From an uncultured Candidatus Saccharibacteria bacterium (lineage in GTDB: Bacteria; Patescibacteriota; Minisyncoccia; Phycocordibacterales; GWA1-40-21), in contig CAYVWL010000002.1 in NCBI GenBank assembly GCA_964455475.1, positions 1-36,439 of the forward strand: a stretch of 36,439 nt of DNA. Direction: 5' to 3'. Each line of letters opens with the position of its first letter. The stretch's first letter is position 1. The position numbers were made by a program, and so were the translations under genes. This document shows positions 3,872-31,670 of this stretch, piece by piece. Under the pieces are notes generated by a model. It saw nothing but the letters and a program-made list of their open reading frames with translations. It did not search any database and had not been told where the DNA came from.

Positions 3872-5976
<2,105 letters not shown>

Positions 5977-6002: not shown

Positions 6003-9000
6003 GTGATGAAAAGGTTTCGACAATATAAAAATCTATTTATTTTTCTAGGAATATTTATATTCTTCTTTTTTATTTCAACCACGGACACTTTTGCTGCGAA
6101 CCGGTATTGGGTGGGGCCAAATAATGGTGATTTCAAGACAAATGCCAATTGGTCAACCTTATCTGGCGGTACTGGTGGCGCAAGTTATCCTCAGTCAGCA
6201 GATACGGCTATCTTTGACTCGGGAAGTAATAATTGTATTATTGCTGGTACAAATTTTACTATTGGTGTTGTTTCAATAACCAGTGGTTATTCTGGAACCA
6301 TAACAAACAATGTGACAACATTGACCGTCCCGAGCTTTTCTCAAGCGGGTGGCACATTTACAAATAACGTCAATTTGTCTTTGAGCACCACTTTTTCTTT
6401 ATCGGGAGGGGTATTTAACGCTGGGCCAGGTGTTAATGTTGGTGTTGGCACCTGGACACAGTCTGGAGGAACCTATAATCATAATAATGGAACCATTTCA
6501 TTTTGGGGGGCTAATACAATAAATGTACCGACTAGTATTACATTTTATAATTTAAATCTTGGAGCCGCTTCAGGTATTACTATAACCACTACTGCCGGCG
6601 ATACGCTGATCGTGGAGGGAACCCTTACCATGTGCACATACTCTGTGGCGACGGTCTTTACCGGGGGGACAATTGAAGCTAGAGGAAATATAAATATTCT
6701 CGCTAATACTAGTGGAACTACGGCTATCAAGGTTGGCGGAGGAGTAGCTACTACCACCTGGACGGGAAATACAAAAACCGTGAGTAATTCGGTAGAAATT
6801 GCCAAGACCGCCGGTACAGTAATAGATTTTGGTAGCGCACAAGCTTTTTTTGGGGGTAATTTTACCATCACCTCGGGAACTGTTTTAGCCCCTAGCACCA
6901 GAATGCATTTTTCTGGAGCTGGTTGGACACAAAATGGTGGAGTATTTACCCCTAATACTGGTGGTTATGTAAGTATGAATGGAAATATTACCTTGAATGT
7001 GCCAACGAATATTACTTTTTATAATTTCTATTATGGTGGTAGCACACTCAATCTTAGCGGTGATACAGTGATAGTTACCAACGCCTTTGACCCAGCTTGG
7101 TGGGGAACAGCTGGTGGAAGTACTATTAACAACGGAACAATTGAGGTGCAGGGAAATATGGTCTTGAGTGGTAATACCACCAACGGAGCAACTGGCGTCT
7201 TTAAATTTACTGGCACAGCTGATCAATCTATTTCCGGCAGTTTTACCTCTTACAATCCGGTGAATATAGCCAAGACCGGTGGGACTCTGACTGTGACTGG
7301 CATGGCCATGTATAATACTTTGACCTTTACTTCCGGTACAACAACCTTTTCTACCTTGACCAATTATTCTGCAACCGTCTTTAACGGTGGAGTGGTAAGC
7401 GGAACCTTTACAGCTTATTCTGGAAATGTAACCTATAATGGTGGTACTTTGACGGGCTTGTCCTTATCACTTGGTGGTAGTAATGCTTATATTTTAGGTA
7501 CGTTTTTTACGGTGGCAAATCTGACCGTCAGTAAGTCGAACGGGGCGTTTATAAATCCCGCCAACGCTGTTTATATTACCGTCACCGGTACCACCACCCT
7601 GTCGGACGGAGTAATTAGTAGTGACGCTGGGACATATAATGGCTATATCCTTGCGCAAGGGAATGTGGTAATCGGCTCGGGCTGGGATGCTGGTAGTTGT
7701 AGTGGAAGTCTACGCTTTGGCGGTACAAATGATCAAACGGTTTCAGCTAGTGCGGGTTTCTGTTCTGCTGTTTATATAAATAAAACTGGCGGTACCCTAA
7801 ATGTCGGTACCTGGACTGTTTCTTCAAGTCCTCTATATTTTCAGGCCGGGACGACGACTGGTTCATTGACAGCTTCTGCTAACAATATTACATATACGGC
7901 TGGTAATATATCTGGATTATCACTCACATTGTCTGGCGGAACCAAGTATATTTATGGTTCGCCGTTTACCGTGGCAAACTTGACCGTGAGTAAGACGAGC
8001 GGAAACGCTATAAATCTCGCCAACGCTGTTACTATTACCGTCACCGGTACCACCAACCTGTCGGACGGAGTGATAAGTACTGATGACGGAACTTTCAATG
8101 GTTATATTATCGCTCAAGGTAATGTAACCGTTGGAGCTAATTGGGACGCTGGTAGTTGCTATGGTAGTTTGCGTTTTACTGGCTCGGCTGATCAAACAGT
8201 CACCTCTAGCGCAGTTTTCTGTTCACCTATCTATGTGAATAAAAGTAGTGGCACTTTAAATATTGGTAACTGGACTAGCTCTGGAGCCATGTATTTCCAG
8301 GCGGGGACAGTCACTGGAAATATTACATCAGCTGGTGGAAATACTATTACATATAATGCTGGCGATATCAGTGCAGTAAATCTTACGGTCACTGGTATAG
8401 CTAGTGTGTTTGATGTCTCACCAAATGGTTCAGCCACGATTAATAGTTTGAATATGAACAAGGCCGGATCCACAGGATTTTATATTGGGTCAAGTGACAC
8501 CCTGATAGTGACCAGTACTACCACTCTTACTGACGGTTATTTCAATAGTAGTGCTTCATATACTGGTATTTTACAGGCACAAGGTGATGTGACTATTGCG
8601 TCCACTTTTGATAGCACTACTGCCTATGGAGGTTTACGATTTGCTGGCACTGCTAATCAAAATTTTTCATCTGCTATCTCCTGGACGGGCAATGTGTCGG
8701 TGACCAAGACAGCGGGGACAATCACTAATACCACTAATATTGTTCTGACCTCTTCTGCTATCACAGTACCAAGTGGGGCCACCTGGGATTTAAATGGTTT
8801 CAATTTTTCGCCAAGCGGTGGCTATACCATGGCTAGTGGTTCAACCCTGCGTTTAAAGGGAAGTGAAGTGACAGTGACTTCTCCAACATTAAGTTCTGGT
8901 AGTACGGTGGAGTATTATGGGACAGCTGTTTCGCAAACAATTAAGGCTTTCAACTACGCAAATAGTAGCTTGATTATCAATACCGGTGCCACGTCGGTGA

Positions 9001-11585
9001 ATTCACTGGCTGGAAATATCTCTGTTGCCACCACCACTATTACTTCTGGTATTTTATATTTGGCAGGATACAATCTCTCATCCACTGTCATTTCTAACAG
9101 CGGAACATTGCGATTAAAAGGTTCTGAAACTATCGCCTCTACTAATTATGGTGCCAATATTGGAGTAGTAGAATATATCGGTGATGGAGATGGCGCCTCG
9201 GATATTTATGGTATTAGCAATTTACCTTATCTTACTCTAAATCTAAACTCCACCGACAGTGCTGATATTTACAGTGATGCTGTTCCTCTGTCTATAACAA
9301 AATATAACAATGCTATTCCAAATACTTCGGACGGAGCCTCTACAGCAGGTAGGATACCGATTGGTACTTCAGGCAAGGGTGATGACGTGCAGATATATGG
9401 CTCGACAATTATTAAGGATGGAAGTATTTATAAGGCCTGGTATTCTGGATATGACGGTGCAACCTATAGAATATATTATGCCACCTCACCAGATGGCTTG
9501 GTTTGGACAAAGTATAATAATACTATACCTGCCAATTCAGACACCACTTCTACCGATGGCCGAATCCCTTTGGGTTCAAATGCCAGGGGAGATGATCTTC
9601 ATGTCTATGGACCAAATGTCATCAAGGATGGATCGACTTACAAAATGTGGTATAGCGGTCATGATGGAGCAAGTGTTAGGATTTTCTATGCTACTTCGCC
9701 AGACGGACTAACCTGGACAAAGTATAACAATGCCACTCCGAATGCCTCTGATACTACTTCAACCGATGGCCGAGTTCCGCTTGGTACTAATACTAAAGGT
9801 GATGATGCGAATACTTATTTCCCGTCAGTTATTTTAGAGGGCGGAACCTATAAGATGTGGTATGCCGGCAACGATGGTACGAATATTCGTATCTACTACG
9901 CCACCTCACCCGATGGCCTGGTCTGGACAAAGTATGATAATACTTCGCCAGCAAATTCCAATACCTCTTCCACAAACGGCCGAGTTCCGCTAGGGACAGA
10001 CACTTATGGTGATGATCTACATACTTATCAGCCGTCAGTCATTAAAGATATAAGTGGTCTGTATTTTATTCTATACACAGGCAATGATGGTACAAATGCG
10101 AGAATTTATTTAGCTTCTTCACCCGATGGTCTGGTGTGGACCAAGTATGGCAACACTACTCCGTCTGATTCTAATACAAATTCAACCGCTGGTCGCATAC
10201 CCATTGGTTCAAACACCAATGGTGACGATGTTGGCACTTATTGCCCCGTAATAATAAAGGATACAGATAATTATAAGATATGGTATTCAGGAAATGATGG
10301 GACAAATCTCTCACTATATTATGCCACTTCTCCATTTGGTCTAAATATTAATAATGATTTAAATGTTTCTGGTGGTGGTAATAGGCCGAGCGGACCAATA
10401 AATCTCGGCGGTAGTCTGGTTCAAACTGGCGGAACACTTTCAATGAATTATGTGGATTTAATTCTAAATGGTAGTAATCAGGCTCTCACTATCCTCGCCA
10501 CCACCACCCTCGCTAGTTTGAATAAATCTGTTATTTCGGCCGATACTTTAACCTTTACCGCTGGCGTGCCACTCGTCGTGACGGGAACCACCACCTTAAA
10601 TGGAATAGCTGATAATATTTTATCTCTCGTCTCATCCAGTCCAGAAACACAATGGCAATTTGATCCACAAGGTGGGAGAGATTTCTCTTACATAGATGTT
10701 ACGGACTCTTGGAATATAAATGCTGTGGAAATAGATTCTAGTGCTATCACTGGTTTTAATGATGGTGGAAATAATACCGGCTGGGGTTCTTCACAAGCTG
10801 TGGTAACTGTCGGTAAATCTGGCACACAAATCGCCACCACCACCATGCCAGTGACAAATCTTGACCTAGGTGGTGCCTTTACCTTAAACGCTACGGATGG
10901 TGATGCGGATATCACCTCCATCAAGATCAAACAAATCGGCTCTCTCGCTACCACCTCCATCACCAATGTGGAATTGTTCTACAAGGAAGAAGTGACATGT
11001 TCCACTAGTAGTTTGCCTGGAGGTGCTGTTTCCTTTGGTGTCGCTGACGCCTTTGATGAAAAGGGTATTGCCACCACTACCGGTAGTCTCACTCTGACGG
11101 ACGGTGTGCAAACCTGCCTTTATATTCAATATGATTTGCCGGACACCTACAGCACCTCCACCCTCGGGCGCAGTATTGATTTTGAAATTACCAATCCAGC
11201 CACCGATCTCACTGTCGATGGGGGAGCGGTCACCACCTCCGCCAAAGTAAATATCTCTGGCCGCACTATTGTCAGTACCACCGATATTACCTCCTTGCTT
11301 TCCTTAAAGTCTGGTGTAAATGCCGAGGATGTCACCGTCTTCTTCCTCCAAAATGATGCCGTCTGGAAAATGGTCAATGGTGGCACACCAATTCGTCTAA
11401 CAAACACTAATCTAAAAGTCCACTCCCTAACCTTCTCAGACTTTACGGCTGGTAGCAGTGGGGGCACAGTGAAAATCACCATGGTTATTTCCAATATTGA
11501 TGCTGGTACAGACCCTAATTTCCTCAGCGTCACCCGCACCTATACTACCACCGCTACGGTCAAGGCGTGGGGAGGGAATGATTAA
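6003..11585 (+). CDS. Giant secreted/surface repeat protein (1860 aa): signal anchor, beta-helix-like repeat modules, five propeller-like Asp-box repeats, C-terminal beta-rich region
   Basis: Uninterrupted 5.6-kb ORF. N-terminal hydrophobic segment LFIFLGIFIFFFFISTTDTFA, followed by RYWVGPNNGDFKTNANWS...GGTGGASYPQSADTAIF, a motif common at the start of large bacterial surface proteins. T/G/S/N-rich composition. Internal tandem repeats are listed separately. Confidence 0.85.
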   Translation: MMKRFRQYKNLFIFLGIFIFFFFISTTDTFAANRYWVGPNNGDFKTNANWSTLSGGTGGASYPQSADTAIFDSGSNNCIIAGTNFTIGVVSITSGYSGTITNNVTTLTVPSFSQAGGTFTNNVNLSLSTTFSLSGGVFNAGPGVNVGVGTWTQSGGTYNHNNGTISFWGANTINVPTSITFYNLNLGAASGITITTTAGDTLIVEGTLTMCTYSVATVFTGGTIEARGNINILANTSGTTAIKVGGGVATTTWTGNTKTVSNSVEIAKTAGTVIDFGSAQAFFGGNFTITSGTVLAPSTRMHFSGAGWTQNGGVFTPNTGGYVSMNGNITLNVPTNITFYNFYYGGSTLNLSGDTVIVTNAFDPAWWGTAGGSTINNGTIEVQGNMVLSGNTTNGATGVFKFTGTADQSISGSFTSYNPVNIAKTGGTLTVTGMAMYNTLTFTSGTTTFSTLTNYSATVFNGGVVSGTFTAYSGNVTYNGGTLTGLSLSLGGSNAYILGTFFTVANLTVSKSNGAFINPANAVYITVTGTTTLSDGVISSDAGTYNGYILAQGNVVIGSGWDAGSCSGSLRFGGTNDQTVSASAGFCSAVYINKTGGTLNVGTWTVSSSPLYFQAGTTTGSLTASANNITYTAGNISGLSLTLSGGTKYIYGSPFTVANLTVSKTSGNAINLANAVTITVTGTTNLSDGVISTDDGTFNGYIIAQGNVTVGANWDAGSCYGSLRFTGSADQTVTSSAVFCSPIYVNKSSGTLNIGNWTSSGAMYFQAGTVTGNITSAGGNTITYNAGDISAVNLTVTGIASVFDVSPNGSATINSLNMNKAGSTGFYIGSSDTLIVTSTTTLTDGYFNSSASYTGILQAQGDVTIASTFDSTTAYGGLRFAGTANQNFSSAISWTGNVSVTKTAGTITNTTNIVLTSSAITVPSGATWDLNGFNFSPSGGYTMASGSTLRLKGSEVTVTSPTLSSGSTVEYYGTAVSQTIKAFNYANSSLIINTGATSVNSLAGNISVATTTITSGILYLAGYNLSSTVISNSGTLRLKGSETIASTNYGANIGVVEYIGDGDGASDIYGISNLPYLTLNLNSTDSADIYSDAVPLSITKYNNAIPNTSDGASTAGRIPIGTSGKGDDVQIYGSTIIKDGSIYKAWYSGYDGATYRIYYATSPDGLVWTKYNNTIPANSDTTSTDGRIPLGSNARGDDLHVYGPNVIKDGSTYKMWYSGHDGASVRIFYATSPDGLTWTKYNNATPNASDTTSTDGRVPLGTNTKGDDANTYFPSVILEGGTYKMWYAGNDGTNIRIYYATSPDGLVWTKYDNTSPANSNTSSTNGRVPLGTDTYGDDLHTYQPSVIKDISGLYFILYTGNDGTNARIYLASSPDGLVWTKYGNTTPSDSNTNSTAGRIPIGSNTNGDDVGTYCPVIIKDTDNYKIWYSGNDGTNLSLYYATSPFGLNINNDLNVSGGGNRPSGPINLGGSLVQTGGTLSMNYVDLILNGSNQALTILATTTLASLNKSVISADTLTFTAGVPLVVTGTTTLNGIADNILSLVSSSPETQWQFDPQGGRDFSYIDVTDSWNINAVEIDSSAITGFNDGGNNTGWGSSQAVVTVGKSGTQIATTTMPVTNLDLGGAFTLNATDGDADITSIKIKQIGSLATTSITNVELFYKEEVTCSTSSLPGGAVSFGVADAFDEKGIATTTGSLTLTDGVQTCLYIQYDLPDTYSTSTLGRSIDFEITNPATDLTVDGGAVTTSAKVNISGRTIVSTTDITSLLSLKSGVNAEDVTVFFLQNDAVWKMVNGGTPIRLTNTNLKVHSLTFSDFTAGSSGGTVKITMVISNIDAGTDPNFLSVTRTYTTTATVKAWGGND
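7434..8810 (+). repeat. Three tandem 459-bp (153-aa) coding repeats inside the giant ORF
   Basis: Units start at 7434, 7893 and 8352, each beginning Y-N/T-G/A-G. Units 1 and 2 are highly similar (FTVANLTVSK..G.AIN.ANAV.ITVTGTT.LSDGVIS.D.GT.NGYI.AQGNV..G..WDAGSC.GSLRF.G..DQTV). Unit 3 has diverged. Earlier modules at similar spacing are marked by NVPT.ITFYN. Confidence 0.85.
9300..10349 (+). repeat. Five tandem 210-bp (70-aa) coding repeats with Asp-box-like SPDGLxWTK motifs (5-bladed beta-propeller candidate)
   Basis: Units start at 9300, 9510, 9720, 9930 and 10140. Consensus KYNN..P..SDT.ST.GR.PLG....GDD...Y.P.VIKDG..YKMWYSG.DG...RIYYATSPDGLVWT. Confidence 0.85.
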
Positions 11586-11607
11586 AATCACAACCGCCCC
11601 GTCCATC

Positions 11608-11629
11608 GGAATGTCCACCCCGCCTTAAC
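11608..11629. terminator. Perfect 9-bp GC-rich hairpin between the convergent giant ORF and rpsA
   Basis: CCCCGCCTT-AACC-AAGGCGGGG. It starts 23 nt after the giant ORF stop. No clean T-run, so terminator function is inferred from position only. Confidence 0.45.
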
Positions 11630-11656
11630 CAAGGCGGGGAAAGGGGACTCTAGTTT

Positions 11657-11718
11657 CGCCACTCCGCTTTCTCCGCCTTTTCTAAGGAGGAGTACCGAGT
11701 CTGCGAGGGGAGGTGGTG
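11657..11718 (-). repeat. Non-coding copy of the element found inside gyrB and the cysteine desulfurase gene, directly abutting the rpsA stop codon
   Basis: The reverse complement reads CACCACCTCCCCTCGCAGACTCGGTACTCCTCCTTAGAAAAGGCGGAGAAAGCGGAGTGGCG. It matches 28800-28846 at 42 of 47 positions without gaps (CCACCTC, TCGCAGACTCG, ACTCCTCCTTAGAAAAGG, GGAGA). Confidence 0.8.
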
Positions 11719-12858
11719 TTATTTCTTCACTGAATCGACAAATGACAACCCCATCTTTTGATTCTTAGCTTCAAAGAGTAAGATTTTGAAAGTATAGTTT
11801 TTGCCCAATTCCAATTTTTCCTTCATTTTTAATTCGGAACCAAATTCGGAAATATGCACCAAGCCAGAAATACCTTCCTCAATTGAGGCCAAGGCACCGT
11901 GCTTGTTAAACTTGATCACCACACCCTGCACCTCATCACCTTTCTTATATTTCTTATCGGCTTCCACCCAAGGATTTTCCTTTAAGGCTTTGATAGAGAG
12001 GGAAATCTTGCCGTCTTTTACTTCTATCACCTTCACCTGCACTTTCTCACCTACTTTATAGAAAGCGCGAGGGTTTTCCACCAGTGTCCAATCAATTTCA
12101 GAAATATGCACCAAGCCTTCCATCCCATCCTCAATCTTTACAAAGATACCAAAGTCTACAATACCGGTGATCTCACCTGCACAGATATCACCCAACTTGT
12201 ATTTCTCCGTCATCTTTTGCTTACCTTTCTTTTCAATATTTTTCTCAGAGAAAATCAGCTTGCCCTCTTTTGGTAGAGCAGTGATGATAGCCACCGATAT
12301 TTTCTGGCCGACTAATTTTTTCAATTCATCCAATATTTTATCCTTATCACCATCGTTGATTCTTGGATAATGCTCGGTCTTGAGCTGGGAGGCGGGGAGA
12401 AAGCCCTTGATTCCTTGCCAATTGATAATCAAACCACCCTTGTTGGCTTCTTCTACTGGTAATTCCAAAACGGTCTTTTCCTTGATGGCCTTCTCGGCTT
12501 CATCCCAGATCAGGGCTTGGCGCGCTTCCTTTAATGACAATTCAATATAACCTTCCTTGTTGCCATTGCCACTGTCCACCACCTTGGCGGCCACTTTGTC
12601 ACCAATATTTATTTTCTTGATAATATCGCGGGCATTGATAAATTCCTTACCAAAAATAATACCTGTCCCATATGGGAAGAGGTTTATATAAACGCAGGAT
12701 TTTTCCACCCCAATCACATCGCCTTCTACCACATCCCCAATAGAGGGTGGGTTAGCGCTCTTGTCCACAATCTTGGTCATCAAACTATCCTTCTTGAGCT
12801 TGATTGCCTTTTCCTCGGCTGTTGACTCATCCACAATTACTTTTGCTTTTTTTGCCAT
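11719..12858 (-). CDS. rpsA: 30S ribosomal protein S1 (four S1 domains, 379 aa)
   Basis: Repeated S1 OB-fold signatures, for example GDVVEGDVIGVEKSCVYINL, GDICAGEITGIVDFGIFVKIEDGMEGLVHISEI, GDEVQGVVIKFNKHGALASIEEGISGLVHISEF. Confidence 0.88.
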   Translation of the reverse strand: MAKKAKVIVDESTAEEKAIKLKKDSLMTKIVDKSANPPSIGDVVEGDVIGVEKSCVYINLFPYGTGIIFGKEFINARDIIKKINIGDKVAAKVVDSGNGNKEGYIELSLKEARQALIWDEAEKAIKEKTVLELPVEEANKGGLIINWQGIKGFLPASQLKTEHYPRINDGDKDKILDELKKLVGQKISVAIITALPKEGKLIFSEKNIEKKGKQKMTEKYKLGDICAGEITGIVDFGIFVKIEDGMEGLVHISEIDWTLVENPRAFYKVGEKVQVKVIEVKDGKISLSIKALKENPWVEADKKYKKGDEVQGVVIKFNKHGALASIEEGISGLVHISEFGSELKMKEKLELGKNYTFKILLFEAKNQKMGLSFVDSVKK

Positions 12859-13030
12859 AATTTTGCTTGTCCCGCTTAGCTATTATATTAGCGTCGTGGG
12901 AAATAAAAATCGCGCACATATTTGGCGCGAACTTCGCCAAAAAGGTCCATCGGCCACAGGCACCAAGGGTGTTACTTCTTGTGATTGTTAATAACCCAGC
13001 TAGTATACATTATATTAGGAAAATTAAAAG

Positions 13031-13059
13031 CTTGACTTTTAGATTCAATTATTTTATTA
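13031..13059 (+). promoter_or_regulatory. Candidate promoter of the 88-aa ORF
   Basis: TTGACT (13031-13036), 17-nt spacer, TATTAT (13054-13059). It is followed by the SD-like GGAAAGGAG 5 nt before ATG 13088. Confidence 0.45.
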
Positions 13060-13087
13060 TTAATGGTAGAAAAGGAAAGGAGTACAT

Positions 13088-13354
13088 ATGAATATCTTTC
13101 GACAGTGGATCAAGCGACGGCGGGCTAAAAGGGAACAGGAATTGGACAGTCTAGACAAAAACATTGACTTGGTGTCCAGGGGGATTGCGTTTTTAACAGA
13201 CTATGTAAGTCCTTTCCATAATTTTTCAGATAATTATGGAAGTGAGTGTAGAGATGATGAGGCTAGGCTTAATAAGCTTCAGCATTATAAATCTCAATTA
13301 CATTCACTCTGTGAAAAACGTGATATGCTTTGTAGGAAGCTTGGTCGTGTATGA
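13088..13354 (+). CDS. Hypothetical small protein (88 aa, basic N-terminus, probably helical)
   Basis: ORF with a strong SD (AAAGGAG) and its own promoter-like signal. No family recognised. Confidence 0.5.
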   Translation: MNIFRQWIKRRRAKREQELDSLDKNIDLVSRGIAFLTDYVSPFHNFSDNYGSECRDDEARLNKLQHYKSQLHSLCEKRDMLCRKLGRV

Positions 13355-13356
13355 TG

Positions 13357-13560
13357 TACAAGGCGGGGGAAGGCAGGACCTCTCCTCGCCTTTTCTCGTG
13401 CCCAAAAAATCAACTGCCCCCAGCCCCTCCTCATTTGAGGAGGGGAGGAGAAACCCCTCCCACCTCCCCTTGTCAGGGGAGGCCGTTCCGAGTTTCCCCC
13501 TGACAAGGGGGTAAGGGGGTTTCTTTCACCTTCCCTTCTTAGTTAAGAAGGGATTGAGGG
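13357..13560. repeat. Cluster of at least four perfect GC-rich pyrimidine-arm/purine-arm mini-hairpins
   Basis: H1 CCCCTCCTCA-TT-TGAGGAGGGG (13424-13445). H2 CCTCCCCT-TGTC-AGGGGAGG (13463-13482). H3 CCCCCT-GACA-AGGGGG (13496-13511). H4 CCCTTCTTA-GT-TAAGAAGGG (13533-13552). The H2 core CCCCTTGTCAGGGG is the exact reverse complement of the H3 core CCCCTGACAAGGGG. The 5' part (AAGGCGGGGGAAGG...CTCCTCGCCTTTTCT) resembles 11620-11685. Confidence 0.85.
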
Positions 13561-13563
13561 AAG

Positions 13564-13592
13564 TTGTATTTGACCTCTGAATTTGATATAAT
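13564..13592 (+). promoter_or_regulatory. Promoter with extended -10 close to the start codon of the MBL-fold gene
   Basis: TTGTAT (13564-13569), 17-nt spacer, TGaTATAAT (13584-13592). ATG at 13602, a 9-nt gap. Confidence 0.5.
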
Positions 13593-13601
13593 AGTAGGGT
13601 C

Positions 13602-14240
13602 ATGATCATCACTTATCAAGGAGTGGAGTTTTTCAAAGTTCAATTTGGGGATACTATCCTCGCTTTCAACCCTATTTCCAAGGAGAGTAAGTTCAAGCCC
13701 ACTCGTTTCTTTGCGGACGTGGCACTCGTTTCTGCCAACCATCCTGATTTTAATGGTGTGGAAAATTTGTCCTATAACGGCAAGGATCCCTTGGTCATTT
13801 CCGGCCCCGGCGAATATGAGACCAAGGGTGTTTTTATTAAAGGTTTCCAGTCCAAGACCTTGTATGATAAAAAAGAGAAAATAAATACGGTCTATACTGT
13901 GGTGCTCGAGGGTATGACCTTGTGTTTTTTGGGTGCGCTGTCTGACGAAAAACTGTCACCGGAATTTATGGAGGCCATAGAGGATATTGATATTTTATTT
14001 TTACCGATTGGGGATGATGGTGTGCTGGATGTGGCCAAGGCCAATAAATTGGCGGTCACCTTGGAGCCGAAAATAATTATTCCAATGCATTATGGCGAGG
14101 TGGGGATGGAGAATGCGTTGAAAAAGTTTTTGAAAGAAGCGGGGGAGGAAGGGGTCAAGCCAGTGGATAAGCTGACCATCAAGAAGAAAGATTTGGAGGG
14201 CAAGGAAGGCGAGGTGGTAGTACTAGAGGCACAAAAATAA
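13602..14240 (+). CDS. MBL-fold (UPF0173/YtkL-like) protein with a degenerate metal-binding motif
   Basis: Overall pattern MIITYQGVEFFKV...FNP, DILFLPIGDDGVLDV and IIIPMHYG resembles UPF0173 metal-dependent hydrolases. The HxHxDH position reads SANHPDF. Confidence 0.6.
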   Translation: MIITYQGVEFFKVQFGDTILAFNPISKESKFKPTRFFADVALVSANHPDFNGVENLSYNGKDPLVISGPGEYETKGVFIKGFQSKTLYDKKEKINTVYTVVLEGMTLCFLGALSDEKLSPEFMEAIEDIDILFLPIGDDGVLDVAKANKLAVTLEPKIIIPMHYGEVGMENALKKFLKEAGEEGVKPVDKLTIKKKDLEGKEGEVVVLEAQK

Positions 14241-23404: not shown

Positions 23405-24400
23405 GTCAAGGAAAATGTTATGGTTCAATAGCTTGGAAACACTTCCCCATATATACTATGAAAATGTCATACACAAAGAATCCGTATCTCCCCAAGGTCC
23501 GTCAGGACGCCGCCGACTTGGTCCGTCGCGGTTGGGGCGTGAGAAAAGTCGCCAGATATGTCGGGGTCAGTCCGGGGACGATCACCAAGTGGGTTAAGAG
23601 AGCTAAGGTAATTGGCTACCACCCCATCCCCACCCTGTCCTCACGACCAAAACATCATCCGCGACAACTGAGCAGTGAATTGGTTTGGAAAATATATCAT
23701 AAACGAGTTCAGATTAAACGGAGCGCCGAGGTGGTCAGACAGGAATTGATCAACGAAGGAATACCGGTGTCCCTGTCTTCGGTCAAACGAACTTTAGACC
23801 GGATGGGTTTGCTAAACAAGAGAAGTCCGTGGAAACGATATCATTTGCCAATCCAGCGACCAGACGTCCAAAAACAAGGTGATTTGGTGCAAATTGACAC
23901 TGTTCACCTTCTGAACGAACATGGGAAAAGAGTGTACGTTTTCACTTTGCTTGATGTGTATTCACGATATGCTTTTGCTCGCGCCTACGAACGAGCGACT
24001 TCAGCCACCGCTTTTCGTTTTCTGAATTGGTGTCAGAAGCAAGTAGATTTCAAATTCCAAACCGTCCAAAGTGACAACGGTTCCGAGTTCGCTGGTTGGT
24101 TCAGTGATCATATTAAATCCGTCCACCGACATACCAGAGTGCGAAGACCAAATGACAATGGACACCTGGAGAGATTCAACCGCACGGTGCAAGAGGAATG
24201 TTTGGACAAGGTGGAAAAGAAAGTTTCGAAGATCAATCAAGCCCTGACAAAATACATGAAATATTACAACGAAAAACGTCTGCATTTTGGGTTGAATTTG
24301 CAGACACCTTTACAAGCTTTAACTAACAAGTGTTTCCAAGGTATTGATTAGAATACGGGAAAATAAGGAGAGAGCAAAAGCGAGCGACTATATTTTCCTA
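23405..24400 (+). mobile_element. IS481-family-like insertion sequence (boundaries approximate)
   Basis: Single DDE transposase ORF. An imperfect terminal inverted repeat is possible: AAGGAAAATGTTATGG near 23411 against the reverse complement of CGACTATATTTTCCTAT near 24385-24401 (an AGGAAAAT core plus scattered matches). No direct repeats seen. Confidence 0.5.
23458..24351 (+). CDS. IS481-family DDE transposase (HTH + rve integrase core)
   Basis: N-terminal HTH (RRGWGVRKVARYVGVSPGTITKWVKR). DDE candidates in LVQIDTVHL, VQSDNGSEF and NGHLERFNRTVQEE, with retroviral-integrase-like spacing. Confidence 0.8.
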   Translation: MKMSYTKNPYLPKVRQDAADLVRRGWGVRKVARYVGVSPGTITKWVKRAKVIGYHPIPTLSSRPKHHPRQLSSELVWKIYHKRVQIKRSAEVVRQELINEGIPVSLSSVKRTLDRMGLLNKRSPWKRYHLPIQRPDVQKQGDLVQIDTVHLLNEHGKRVYVFTLLDVYSRYAFARAYERATSATAFRFLNWCQKQVDFKFQTVQSDNGSEFAGWFSDHIKSVHRHTRVRRPNDNGHLERFNRTVQEECLDKVEKKVSKINQALTKYMKYYNEKRLHFGLNLQTPLQALTNKCFQGID

Positions 24401-28545: not shown

Positions 28546-29841
28546 ATGAGAAAGGTGATTTATTTGGACCATTCAGCCACCACGCCGGTGAGAAAGGAGG
28601 TGCTGACCGCGATGAAGCCGTTTTGGACGGAGAACTTTGGTAATCCTGGATCCATTACTAAAATTGGGGTGAGGGCCAGGCAGGCCGTGGAAGCTTCACG
28701 CAGGAAAATTGCAGAAATATTGAAAGCCCGAGCGCAGGAAATTATTTTTACTTCTGGTGGCACCGAGTCCAATAATCTGGCGATTTTTGGTTTGGTGAAC
28801 CACCTCGTCTCGCAGACTCGCCACTCCTCCTTAGAAAAGGAGGAGAGACCGAAGATTTCAGACTTGCATTTCATTACTACCAATATCGAACACAGTTCCG
28901 TCACGGAATGTTTCAAGGAATTGGAGAGAAGGGGAGCCGGGGTGGATTATTTGGCCGTCAATGAAAAGGGACTAGTAGAGCCTAAGGATTTGCGAAAAAT
29001 TATTAAGCCTAACACCGTTCTTATTTCCGTGGGTTATGCCAACAATGAAATTGGCACCATTCAGCCGATCAAGGAAATCGCCAAAGAAATCCGTCATGCC
29101 AGGAAGAGTCACAAAAGCTTGGCCTTTGGTATGTCCAAAAGCCAAGCCTTTGTGTCAAATATTTTTCCTCTTTTTCATACCGATGCCAGTCAGGCGGGTC
29201 TGTATTGTAATTTGAATTTAAATGAACTGGGTGTGGACTTGCTCACCCTAGATGCGCAGAAAATTTACGGACCAAAAGGGGTTGGTCTTTTATATAAAAG
29301 AGCGGGGGTGGAAATAGCACCAACTATTTTTGGTGGGGGACAGGAGAGTGGTTTGCGTTCGGGCACAGAAAATGTGCCTGGCGTTGTCGGCTTCTCCATA
29401 GCACTCGAATTGTGTCGCCAATCTCTTCTCTTCCCCTCATTAGATAAGGAGGGGCTAGGGGCGGTTGAGAAACTCCGTAATTATTTCTGGCAGAAAATTC
29501 AAAAAGAAATTCCTAGTGCAATTTTAAATGGTGATTTGGAAAATCGCCTGCCGAATAATTTAAATATTTCCATTCCCGGTATTGATTCCGAATTTACTGT
29601 TTTATGTTTGGATGAGGCTGGTATCATTTGCTCCACGCGCAGTGCTTGTGGCCACGGCACGGACGGCTCCCTTGTCATCCGCGCCCTCTATTCCGGACAA
29701 GGACAGTCCTTGTCCGAGATTGATATTCGAGCAAAGTCCAGCCTACGTTTTTCTCTAGGTCCGGAAATTACTAAAAAAGAGATAGACTTTGTGGTTACCA
29801 CTCTAAAAAACCTTATTTCTAGGGTTAAAATTGGGTCTTAA
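28546..29841 (+). CDS. Cysteine desulfurase (NifS/IscS family, class V aminotransferase), lengthened by hairpin-encoded segments
   Basis: IYLDHSATTP, FTSGGTESNNLAI, LFHTDASQA, PLP-lysine context LDAQKIYGPKGVGLLY, catalytic Cys context STRSACGHG. At 431 aa it is longer than the roughly 380-405 aa I recall for the family. Confidence 0.9.
   Translation: MRKVIYLDHSATTPVRKEVLTAMKPFWTENFGNPGSITKIGVRARQAVEASRRKIAEILKARAQEIIFTSGGTESNNLAIFGLVNHLVSQTRHSSLEKEERPKISDLHFITTNIEHSSVTECFKELERRGAGVDYLAVNEKGLVEPKDLRKIIKPNTVLISVGYANNEIGTIQPIKEIAKEIRHARKSHKSLAFGMSKSQAFVSNIFPLFHTDASQAGLYCNLNLNELGVDLLTLDAQKIYGPKGVGLLYKRAGVEIAPTIFGGGQESGLRSGTENVPGVVGFSIALELCRQSLLFPSLDKEGLGAVEKLRNYFWQKIQKEIPSAILNGDLENRLPNNLNISIPGIDSEFTVLCLDEAGIICSTRSACGHGTDGSLVIRALYSGQGQSLSEIDIRAKSSLRFSLGPEITKKEIDFVVTTLKNLISRVKIGS
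28800..28847 (+). repeat. Hairpin-forming repeat element in frame inside the cysteine desulfurase gene
   Basis: CCACCTCGTCTCGCAGACTCGCCACTCCTCCTTAGAAAAGGAGGAGA. Hairpin at 28824-28845. The 27-mer is identical to gyrB 5726-5752. 42 of 47 positions match the reverse complement of 11657-11718. Encodes ...[14 protein letters not shown]... Confidence 0.85.
29117..29147 (+). repeat. Second in-frame inverted repeat inside the cysteine desulfurase gene
   Basis: GCTTGGC (29117-29123) and GCCAAGC (29141-29147), embedded in near-duplicate 15-mers AAAAGCTTGGCCTTT / AAAAGCCAAGCCTTT. Encodes KSLAFGMSKSQAF just before the conserved LFHTDA. Confidence 0.6.
29433..29454 (+). repeat. Third in-frame mini-hairpin inside the cysteine desulfurase gene
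   Basis: CCCCTCATT-AGAT-AAGGAGGGG (8 of 9 pairs). Same arm/loop layout and same reading frame (FPSLDKEG) as the CTCCTCCTT-AGAA-AAGGAGGAG element (SSLEKEE). Confidence 0.6.
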
Positions 29842-29957: not shown

Positions 29958-30260
29958 ATGATAACCGTGAAGTTGGTTAGCCAAGACAAGGCGTCGGAGA
30001 TGAGATTCGGTACCCCACTCGAAGCGTTCGTGCATTTCAGAATATGTCAGAGCAATCCGTGTGGCCACATCAAGATCACGGTGACGTCTGTGACGCGGGA
30101 CAGTGTTTCTCTTCATGAAGAGCGCCCCCTTCTTGGTCCGGAGGATATTACCTATACCGGTCCGGAGGAGGAGATGGCCATTCTTCAGTACGCAGCGATG
30201 CACATGTTCCAGGCCGAACTGCAGCCTGCGATTGAGCGACTTACTGCCGGTGCGGCGTAG
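29958..30260 (+). CDS. Hypothetical small protein (100 aa) of G+C-rich, foreign-looking composition
   Basis: ATG 29958 is preceded by AAGGAGA at about 8 nt and lies downstream of the predicted TSS. The longer ORF start (29877) sits inside the promoter spacer. No family recognised. Confidence 0.5.
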   Translation: MITVKLVSQDKASEMRFGTPLEAFVHFRICQSNPCGHIKITVTSVTRDSVSLHEERPLLGPEDITYTGPEEEMAILQYAAMHMFQAELQPAIERLTAGAA

Positions 30261-30307
30261 GGTCATCTACCGCGAATTGGTTGGCTCGGGAAGGTACTGA
30301 GCAACAA

Positions 30308-30361
30308 GTCCACTTTGTGGGCGGGGGAAAGTCCCGTCTGCACAGGTGGGCTTTTTCTTTT
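30308..30361 (+). terminator. GC-rich structured region ending in a T-run (putative terminator of the small G+C-rich gene)
   Basis: GTCCAC-TTT-GTGGGC, then a GGGCGGG...CCCGTCT stem with G-U pairs, then GGTGGGCTTTTTCTTTT. The fold is not a clean single hairpin. Confidence 0.45.
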
Positions 30362-30420
30362 GAATAATATTTTAATTTTCCTTGCAAGTTGTAACTGGAA
30401 TTATATAATTAGATGTAGAT

Positions 30421-30726
30421 ATGTTTTATACCTATGTTTTACGAAGTCTAAAAAATGCCAGTCTGTATACTGGTTATACAAATGATTTGCGAGCAAGGGT
30501 CCATGAGCATAACAGTGGACTTTCTGAATATACAAAGAAATATTTACCATACGAGTTAATCTATTATGAATCGTGTTTAGATGAGGGTGATGCTAGGGCG
30601 AGAGAAAAACAGTTAAAGACGGGGTTGGGGAAAAGGTATTTAAAATTAAGGTTAAGGAGGTTTTTTAGAAAAAGCATTGTGGGCATGGATCCCGTTCGAT
30701 GTTCAGGGAGGAAAGAGTCTATATAA
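30421..30726 (+). CDS. Small GIY-YIG (URI-domain) nuclease family protein
   Basis: FYTYVLRS...LYTGYTNDLRARVHEHNSG ... YYESC...ARAREKQLK. This is the classic layout of stand-alone GIY-YIG proteins of about 90 aa. Confidence 0.8.
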   Translation: MFYTYVLRSLKNASLYTGYTNDLRARVHEHNSGLSEYTKKYLPYELIYYESCLDEGDARAREKQLKTGLGKRYLKLRLRRFFRKSIVGMDPVRCSGRKESI

Positions 30727-30794
30727 GTTGTAAATTTATCAAGTTAGTAGTACAATTGTTGTTAAGGTTAATAATTAAAACATCAAACGGGATG
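30689..30794 (+). promoter_or_regulatory. Leader element copy A: 15-bp arms enclosing a promoter and overlapping the start codon of the HtrA-like gene
   Basis: ATCCCGTTCGATGTT (30689-30703) pairs with AACATCAAACGGGAT (30779-30793) at 14 of 15 positions. The loop holds TTGTAA-17-TACAAT (30728-30756). The 3' 27 nt are nearly identical to copy B. Confidence 0.7.
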
Positions 30795-31670
30795 GATATG
30801 GAGAAACTCACAAAACAACAGATAGTTTTGGTCACGCTTTTGGTGAGCTTTGTGACTTCTATTGCCACAGGGATTGTGACGGTGGCCCTGATGGACCAGG
30901 CACCAGCGGGCGTGACACAAACGATAAACCGCGTGGTGGAGAGGACGATTGAAAAGGTAGTCACCGAGCCAGCTAAAAATAATAATACTGCCGCAGTGGT
31001 GACGCGCGAGACTATTGTGGTGAAAGAGGACGACAAAATCGTGGAGTCCGTGGATAAAAATAAAAATAGCATTGTTCGTATTTATACTAAAATGGATAAT
31101 GCCGGAGACGTGGCCGGGAATACTTTTATTGGTCTTGGTACCATCGTCTCCAAGGAGGGCCTGATTGTGACCGGTGATGTGTTTGCGGATCAGAGTGGTA
31201 AATATTTAGTGACCGTGGATAATAATAAATTCTATTCCGTAAAAGTTCTACCTAGAAAAGGCAATAGTCAATTTTATTTCTTGAAAGTTATTCAGGATGA
31301 AAAAGCTCCTGTCATTTTTTCACCGGTTAGCTTTTCTGATTCTAGTGGTTTAAAGCTGGGCCAAACCGTGATTGCTTGGGGTGGGCAAATTCAGAATTCG
31401 GTTTCTACTGGTATTGTTTCCAGCCTCGTGGATGTGGAGGGTAAGGTAGAGCAAGCCAGCACCACGGCCTCTACCACCAAGGTGGTCACCAGAGAAATTA
31501 TTGCTATCAATACCAATATTAATCTGGCAGACAGCCTCTCCGGTGGGCCACTCCTAAACCTTTATGGTGAAGTGGTGGGGATCCGCGTCAGCTCGGGCAT
31601 TTCCGAAAAATATAATTTTCTCCCCTCAAATCTCTTAAAGTCTGAAGTTTTGGCCGTGACTGCCCTTTAG
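30792..31670 (+). CDS. Membrane-anchored trypsin-fold HtrA/DegP-like protein without PDZ, with catalytic His and Asp apparently replaced
   Basis: Start taken at ATG 30792 (MDMEKL..., followed by the TM LVTLLVSFVTSIATGIVTVAL). S1C-like blocks GLGTIVSKEGLIVTGDVF, LKLGQTVIAWGG, STGIVSS and SLSGGPLLNLYGEVVGI. Where HtrA has TNNHV this protein has TGDVF. Where HtrA has D(I/L)ALLK it has QFYFLKV. Confidence 0.7.
   Translation: MDMEKLTKQQIVLVTLLVSFVTSIATGIVTVALMDQAPAGVTQTINRVVERTIEKVVTEPAKNNNTAAVVTRETIVVKEDDKIVESVDKNKNSIVRIYTKMDNAGDVAGNTFIGLGTIVSKEGLIVTGDVFADQSGKYLVTVDNNKFYSVKVLPRKGNSQFYFLKVIQDEKAPVIFSPVSFSDSSGLKLGQTVIAWGGQIQNSVSTGIVSSLVDVEGKVEQASTTASTTKVVTREIIAINTNINLADSLSGGPLLNLYGEVVGIRVSSGISEKYNFLPSNLLKSEVLAVTAL

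Follow-up and report, generated by a model that had tools for sequence, protein, structure and literature searches.

In Proteobacteria, short G+C-rich imperfect palindromes of the REP, BIME and REPIN type occur in tens to hundreds of copies, mostly extragenically at the 3' ends of genes, and roles in termination, in the stabilisation of mRNA and in the control of translation have been proposed for them (PMC3733652; PMC12306157). The GTAG-type REPs are mobilised by RAYT Y1 transposases. They carry an unpaired GTAG tetranucleotide at one end, and REP termini that overlap stop codons are reported (PMC3733652); REPs less than 16 nt from a stop codon down-regulate translation (PMC12306157). The CGTC-tagged REPs (Di Nocera et al. 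2013) are characterized by an unpaired CGTC, TGTC or CCTC tag, an 8–9-bp stem that opens with two A–T pairs, a 4–5-nt loop and a CCA tail, and include RPE-4/RPE-6 and dRS3/NTS (PMC3733652). Furthermore, dispersed repeats with terminator-like hairpin transcripts have been proposed to supply terminators (PMC10969869), and NTS/SRM hairpin repeats are recognised by Ssn GIY-YIG ssDNA nucleases (PMC11893778).

Here, we describe a dispersed hairpin repeat from a member of the Patescibacteria, starting from a window of 36,439 nucleotides (the whole stretch that was analysed), which is contig C2 of a 60-contig genome (654 kb, 42% G+C, 95% complete). DNA of the host was found in freshwater metagenomes, and the nearest relatives of its GyrB protein are from MAGs labelled Candidatus Paceibacterota, Taylorbacteria, Zambryskibacteria or Parcubacteria. 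Within the window, a 133-nt gap separates a giant ORF (6003–11585, +) from the convergent rpsA gene (11719–12858, −), whose product is an S1-domain protein with four S1 domains.

The repeat shares with REP, BIME and REPIN elements that it consists of dispersed palindromes, which frequently form inverted doublets that fold into long hairpins and which lie near stop codons. It differs from the GTAG-type REPs in that its consensus holds no GTAG and has AACCRCCYC at its 5' end, that one unit comprises two hairpins plus this C-rich motif, and that about 20% of the units are in frame inside genes; unlike for REPs and REPINs, no cognate RAYT gene flanked by units was detected. Like the Rickettsia palindromic elements (RPEs), it comprises palindromes in a reduced genome that occur intergenically as well as in frame in housekeeping genes and have no known dedicated transposase, and the ~130-nt doublet resembles an RPE in size; this likeness is one of behaviour only, as the sequences look unrelated, and membership is not claimed. 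The CGTC-tagged REPs and RPEs have alphaproteobacterial hosts, whereas the present family is from Patescibacteria, and its second hairpin (9 bp, 4-nt loop) has C–G pairs at its base, farthest from the loop, and is preceded by (C)CA and not by CGTC. In an alignment read by eye, CGTC was seen only at the base of the first hairpin, in ~30% of the units. The terminator-supplying repeats (PMC10969869) resemble it as dispersed repeats with a terminator-like hairpin in the transcript; in comparison to them, there is no hairpin-plus-U-tract in the unit, only some doublet flanks are U-rich, and no parent IS was found. With the NTS/SRM repeats the family has in common an oriented hairpin repeat, a conserved single-stranded upstream motif and clustering around genes; however, the motif differs from CGTCATTCCC..., and the small GIY-YIG gene of the host has no flanking units. 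The terminal inverted repeats (CACAACCGCCCC, GGGGAGGTGGTG) on a small non-coding element are MITE-like, but no parent IS with matching ends was found in the genome. Since the defining tags (GTAG, CGTC) and the enzyme associations are lacking, we did not file the family as a REP or as an RPE/CGTC member. Its most fitting description is a new Patescibacteria variant within the REP/RPE/MITE kind, and the literature searched gave no account of comparable repeats from CPR bacteria. The family offers a tractable case for the spread of REP/RPE-like repeats without RAYT and for the co-option of such repeats.

Two repeat units between the giant ORF and rpsA

An earlier note on this DNA had described the sequence next to rpsA as a non-coding copy of an element inside the cysteine desulfurase gene, and this was borne out. 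The reverse complement of 11657–11718 matches the desulfurase element (28795–28860) at exactly 42 of 47 ungapped positions, or at 48 of 56 if extended, and an independent repeat search recovered the same pair (11662–11717 with 28799–28854; 56 nt, 86%). A chance match is excluded by the nhmmer E-value of the intergenic copy against the family profile (6.7e-19) and by its covariance-model score (Table 1). As claimed, the copy begins directly after the rpsA stop codon, and its continuation GGAGAAAGCGGAG resembles GGAGAAAGGGAAC of the gyrB copy. The perfect hairpin that had been reported alongside it exists as well; it lies at 11618–11639, however, and not at 11608–11629, which reads GGAATGTCCACCCCGCCTTAAC.

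The "copy" and the "related hairpin" belong together, each being one half of an inverted doublet that occupies the entire gap. Including the CAC in front of each motif, the doublet spans 11589–11718 and lies 3 nt from the TAA of the giant ORF and 0 nt from the TAA of rpsA. Unit B, which starts 3–6 nt past the giant ORF stop (nhmmer E = 3.6e-11), is of a subfamily in which hairpin 1 is broken (GTCCAT..ATGTCC). Unit A is a member of a subfamily with an unpaired hairpin 1 and a T–C mismatch in hairpin 2, which here reads CTCCTCCTT-AGAA-AAGGCGGAG with this one mismatch; with its degenerate hairpin 1 and mismatched hairpin 2 the unit reaches −11.1 kcal/mol. The centre of the spacer between the units differs among doublet copies.

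Table 1. Positions of the doublet, its neighbouring stop codons and the in-frame copies in the window
Feature	Position	Strand	Remark or basis
Giant ORF stop, TAA	11583–11585	+	ancestral position (...AWGGND*); orthologues in G002 and G012 end at same residues
Left outer inverted repeat, unit B 5' motif CACAACCGCCCC	11589–11600	+	pairs with 11707–11718 in predicted fold
Unit B: 5' motif, degenerate hairpin 1 GTCCATCGGAATGTCC, perfect hairpin 2	about 11592–11642	+	covariance model 66.8 bits, E = 2.5e-16
Unit B hairpin 2: CCCCGCCTT-AACC-AAGGCGGGG, 9 bp, 4-nt loop	11618–11639	+	sequence
25-nt spacer AGGGGACTCTAGTTTCGCCACTCCG	11643–11667		inner partial repeats GGGGAAAGGGGAC / CTCCGCTTTCTCC
Unit A, rpsA sense: CACCACCTCCCC, non-pairing CTCGCAGACTCGG, hairpin 2	11668–11718	−	covariance model 64.2 bits, E = 1.2e-15
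Right outer inverted repeat GGGGAGGTGGTG, reverse complement of unit A 5' motif	11707–11718	+	predicted fold
rpsA stop, TAA	11719–11721	−	ancestral position (...VDSVKK*)
In-frame unit in gyrB	5706–5753	+	hypervariable acidic linker before QRYKGLGEM
In-frame unit in cysteine desulfurase gene	28798–28847	+	common to G011; absent from 13 congeners (L132–L146)

The outer 12-nt inverted repeats close one long predicted hairpin, and folding gave −60.9 kcal/mol (z = −3.8) for the rpsA strand and −56.3 kcal/mol (z = −3.0) for the other strand. A dedicated structured RNA gene or cis-regulatory RNA specific to rpsA (an sRNA, a riboswitch or a leader) would be in line with this stable predicted fold and with the transcription of the region (see below), but such an RNA is highly improbable: an Rfam scan of 11300–13700 with E-values up to 10 returned only noise (best match snoR9, 15 bits, E = 2), the same sequence occurs 57 times beside unrelated genes and in ORFs, and none of the congeners examined has it at the rpsA locus. 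The idea of an rpsA-specific RNA is effectively refuted by the genome census.

The DNA contigs of two metagenome runs (X1, X2) break inside the doublet (11597–11718), where the summed depth rises from ~10 to 126–150. Repeats that break assemblies in this way, with DNA contigs ending at them, can mislead the annotation of gene ends.

Copy number, structure and placement of the units

The genome-wide census yielded one family with intergenic and in-frame coding forms, as the earlier note had supposed. The first profile search gave 11 copies at E<1e-13; iterated nhmmer gave 57 non-overlapping units and the covariance model 52. Of the 57 units, 46 are located between genes and 11 within ORFs of 80 aa or more. 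It is unlikely that the other copies are assembly artefacts, given the independent runs and the 14 congeners in which the doublet occurs. Thus, a tiny streamlined Patescibacteria genome nonetheless carries ~57 copies of a structured repeat. A unit of ~50 nt starts with AACCRCCYC, which is kept across units, followed by a small hairpin with a CAGA loop (hairpin 1), (C)CA and a 9-bp hairpin with a 4–5-nt loop (hairpin 2; consensus arms CYCCKCCTT / AAGGMGGRG). Both helices covary, with a score of 0.354 compared to 0.152 in shuffled alignments (0 of 500 reached 0.354) and at most 0.123 in slid controls. Double changes were counted in 127 cells, 43 being expected, and 85% of the cells are paired compared to 71% in the shuffles; the CAGA loop is common to more than 15 different hairpin-1 stems, all of them perfectly paired.

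The broken hairpin 1 of unit B, GTCCAT-CAGA-ATGTCC, recurs in the host genome so that six copies carry it (C2:11592, C3:97, C3:35543, C14:13516, C24:128 and C26:7818), while a congener copy has the intact form GTCCAT-CAGA-ATGGAC. The same defect at six loci, intact in the congener, points to recent amplification within the host genome, and judging from their sequences the six copies are a genome-specific subfamily that stems from one mutated source copy. Doublet copies within the host genome are up to 90–96% identical; congener doublets are 78–87% identical and lie at non-orthologous loci, away from rpsA and the giant ORF. The family would seem to be non-autonomous, to multiply within a genome, to turn over between close relatives and to tolerate being read in frame.

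Inverted neighbours always lie tail to tail with their 5' motifs outward (17:0, 9 in the host genome and 8 in 397 kb of the congener G010), and therefore the doublet is a defined form of the element. About 40% of the units sit in doublets, which are about 115–135 nt long; full doublets are also present on C14, C3, C26 and elsewhere in the host genome, and one doublet lies inside a 528-aa ORF. With this arrangement, the 5' motifs would act as terminal inverted repeats and the ~130 nt would fold as one hairpin.

With regard to neighbouring genes, 15 of the 46 intergenic units start between −3 and +10 nt from the stop codon of the upstream gene on the same strand, and only 2 show the opposite polarity, with the 3' end abutting a convergent stop. 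Random placement within the same gaps gave 5.35 ± 1.85 such units and a maximum of 14 in 2000 trials. The stop-adjacent units of G010 follow the same trend (4 compared to 1 of opposite polarity), and the gap between rpsA and the giant ORF obeys the rule twice, once per unit. Unit starts were found 0–7 nt past the stops of rpsA, prfA-like, efp, rpoD, secY, rny, metG and adk; from their protein sequences we take the stop-adjacent genes to be housekeeping genes for a release factor, EF-P, RpoD, SecY, RNase Y, MetRS, Adk, PBP2 and PilC. This stop hugging is no artefact of ORF calling, since the 5' part of the unit has no stop codon in any frame. No stop-like or fixed insertion target was seen among the units of the host genome, in which the preceding bases are AC, CA or TC. 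Gaps eroding as part of genome streamlining, or strand-specific insertion, could also account for the placement without a function at the RNA level, and copies occur in divergent (5'/5') gaps as well. As stop-proximal REPs are known in Proteobacteria (PMC3733652; PMC12306157), the proximity to stops is analogous and not unprecedented.

It might be that the units act at the level of translation, whereby a hairpin 0–6 nt past the stop would hinder terminating ribosomes and tune down rpsA and the giant ORF. The position of units 0–7 nt past many stops speaks for this, with the E. coli REPs within 15 nt as a precedent (PMC12306157; PMC3733652). However, the first 9–10 nt of a unit are unpaired, and hairpin 1 is either weak or missing in the two units of the gap, so that there would be little structure for a ribosome at the stop to run into. 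We regard such a regulator as improbable here, although it could coexist with a role at the 3' end.

The rpsA 3' end in relatives and transcription of the gap

In each of the 15 congeners, rpsA terminates at the same residues, and the doublet was found at the rpsA 3' site in none of the congeners examined. Hairpin-plus-T-run terminators, mostly with an upstream A-run, are present 3' of rpsA in eight of them (G005, G010, G006, G013, G012, G008, G009 and G001); these are short, bidirectional and 30–60 nt long. G012 keeps the convergent giant ORF and has a 36-nt terminator gap, and in G002 synteny is kept and different G+C-rich hairpin units start right after the rpsA stop. An exact-protein look-up gave no strain variants of the rpsA locus on record. 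The position of the giant ORF (1860 aa) is kept in G002 and G012; the ORF is absent from several congeners (G005, G004 and G015; loci L012, L014 and L017 compared), in which a gyrB C-terminus-like sequence, judged by eye, is directly convergent to rpsA.

The rpoD locus shows this pattern again. In G005 an intact terminator follows the gene, whereas the host genome (G000:C37:6388–6498) has a doublet, then TTTTTT, and then one decayed arm of the G005-type terminator. All that G002 has of the doublet is its final 12 nt, ACGGGGCGGTTG, directly behind the stop (loci L148 and L150), which by its sequence looks like a deletion or excision footprint. On a wider scale, blastn detected the doublet in 14 of the 15 congeners and in none of 25 genomes from outside the genus but within the family or order, sister genera included. 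Among 120 further genera of the order, the covariance model recovered units in 10, every one from a different family, with up to 39 copies. This patchy distribution fits horizontal spread together with rapid loss.

Transcription was followed in unstranded Logan contigs of metatranscriptomes. One contig of 379 nt (X4), from a metatranscriptome of another study than the best DNA-holding runs, matches 11538–11916 without mismatch and thus comprises the 3' part of rpsA, the whole doublet and 47 nt beyond. The exact match confirms the doublet junctions independently of the assembly and shows that the doublet is transcribed. As the contig runs 47 nt past the doublet, termination there is partial at best, or the contig overlaps the transcript of the giant ORF; since the contigs carry no strand, X4 could merge two convergent transcripts. 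Otherwise, rpsA is almost fully covered, and 10500–11469 is uncovered in three RNA runs.

The earlier note had proposed that the element acts as a terminator or mRNA-end structure for the two convergent genes, which is plausible: the relatives have a terminator at this position, no Rho was detected and the hairpin is flanked by U-rich tracts, but no canonical terminator was called and X4 reads through. In detail, a consensus terminator scan called no canonical terminator in the gap (11586–11718), and no Rho RNA-binding domain was detected in the host genome, which is 95% complete. Of the gene 3' ends in the host genome, 41 have a strict canonical terminator and 29 a unit, and only 2 have both (2/68). 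The closing stem of the doublet is followed by AUUUUAAUC on one side and by UUAUUUCUUC on the other; the outward flanks have 5/10 and 7/10 T and are among the highest of the 17 doublets (mean 0.40; genome base frequency 0.29), while single units mostly have no following U tract. The partner arms of the closing stem lie ~100 nt apart, which is atypical for an intrinsic terminator. The doublet resembles bidirectional intrinsic terminators in occupying the position of the congeners' terminators and in having a hairpin with U-rich tracts on both sides, and differs from them as a 130-nt composite hairpin that is a genome-wide repeat and is not called by the terminator scan.

From the sequence comparisons, we consider it reasonably probable that a REP/BIME/RPE-like repeat doublet has taken over the position of a terminator, where it probably acts as a 3'-end hairpin. 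The doublet has come to occupy the exact space between the ancestral stops of the giant ORF and rpsA, in which relatives have a bidirectional intrinsic terminator, and it is transcribed within RNA contiguous with rpsA; its hairpin with the U-rich flanks would now form the 3'-end structure of both genes, as a terminator and/or an exonuclease barrier. If doublets are 3'-end signals, an expression element has been swapped for a mobile one at orthologous sites.

The doublet might also be selfish or neutral DNA, which inserted harmlessly while the old terminator decayed or was deleted, so that it has no selected role in the rpsA gap and transcription ends by other means or enters the neighbouring gene. 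This would fit the patchy distribution, the fast turnover and the amplification within the genome, as well as the read-through of X4 across the doublet and 47 nt beyond, the lack of a canonical terminator geometry, and the copies in divergent gaps and ORFs, where a terminator would bring no benefit or do harm. Nevertheless, we hold it to be rather unlikely given the strong polarity (15 compared to 2 units at stops; 9 ORF copies in sense and 2 in antisense), the rarity with which units and strict terminators share a gene 3' end, and the independent occurrence of family members exactly at the rpsA stop in two congeners. Moreover, some 3'-end signal is needed at the gap because no Rho was detected.

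In-frame copies and candidate mobilising enzymes

Besides gyrB and the cysteine desulfurase gene (Table 1), in both of which the family has become protein sequence, further in-frame copies lie in ORFs on C5, C30 and C44. The earlier note had suggested that an intergenic repeat occasionally enters ORFs, and the direction fits, as most relatives lack the desulfurase insert and all that were examined lack the element in the rpsA gap. The empty desulfurase site CTA GAA AAG (LEK) corresponds in the alignment to the loop plus the 3' arm of hairpin 2, with a net gain of only 30 nt; from this single case, the overlap may hint at a microhomology-guided insertion. A similar GAA AAG overlap is seen in gyrB.

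Two of the three sense frames of the unit are open. Behind the TAA of rpsA, unit A can be read for 22 codons before a stop (11653–11721, −; HHLPSQTRYSSLEKAEKAEWRN*), in the frame of the desulfurase and C5 coding copies, which would be in accordance with a read-through C-terminal extension or a recently truncated tail of rpsA. This is nonetheless scarcely credible, as all congeners have the rpsA stop at this ancestral position, no fitting genetic code reassigns TAA since long ORFs are intact under table 11, and two of three sense frames are open anyway. The other stop-adjacent units show no consistent frame (9/8/4), and the in-frame reading after rpsA is therefore probably due to chance.

A more far-reaching reading, which we hold to be possible albeit doubtful, is that the doublets are "mobile terminators" that spread horizontally, land or are retained head-first exactly at stops, displace the native intrinsic terminators of housekeeping genes in Paceibacteria with no detected Rho, do so without a known class of transposase, and seed protein loops. 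The seeding of loop segments in essential proteins would be favoured since the unit offers two open, hydrophilic sense frames out of three.

Several candidates for a mobilising enzyme were considered. Y1_Tnp (PF01797) had no match in the host genome, no units flank the Y1 genes of congeners, and among 121 genomes of the order Y1 occurs in 7 of 11 unit-positive and 65 of 110 unit-negative ones. A RAYT/Y1 transposase was thus rejected as mobiliser. The Y1_Tnp (IS200/RAYT-like) genes, present in 72 of the 121 genomes, are mostly frames of 215–260 aa, often 2–10 per genome. The only small single-domain GIY-YIG gene, for 101 aa (PF01541, 55 bits), lies at 30421–30726 (+), with the domain match at 30421–30633; an Ssn-type link was rejected, as the gene has no flanking units and there is no covariance-model match near 30200–30820. 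It lies just upstream of a 105-bp repeated cassette at 30733–30794. A second GIY-YIG match (C3:4283–4513) is in a 467-aa frame that we take to be UvrC-like. A longer autonomous form was likewise rejected, since outward-facing motif pairs 0.5–3.5 kb apart enclose only housekeeping or orphan ORFs, and no homologues of these orphan ORFs were found in G010. No parent IS with matching ends was found; the ends of an rve-type IS (23458–24351) are not matched by the unit model. Nor was a consistent direct repeat seen in the unit flanks that would indicate a target-site duplication, and at the rpsA site, where no empty allele was found, the relatives have unrelated terminator sequence.

A link to the DUF559 endonuclease was discarded as well, as its copy on C35 is flanked by units and the copy on C7 is not. 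The C35 copy (Vsr-like) belongs to a 1.1-kb islet (G000:C35:5173–6306) with six units and an orphan ORF of 94–119 aa, which has the highest RNA contig depth on that contig (9.3). RNA coverage of C35 is sparse, and the one RNA contig that reaches a unit there ends shortly after entering it, possibly because the assembly broke at this repeat. In the 5' gap of rpsA (12859–13601) there is a cluster of other G+C-rich hairpins at 13412–13447 (+) and 13461–13565, among them a short-type unit, CCCCTCCTCAAATGAGGAGGGG...GGGGGCAGTTGA, that matches a second in-frame segment of the desulfurase gene (29426–29468) as well as C4:29334 and C6:585.
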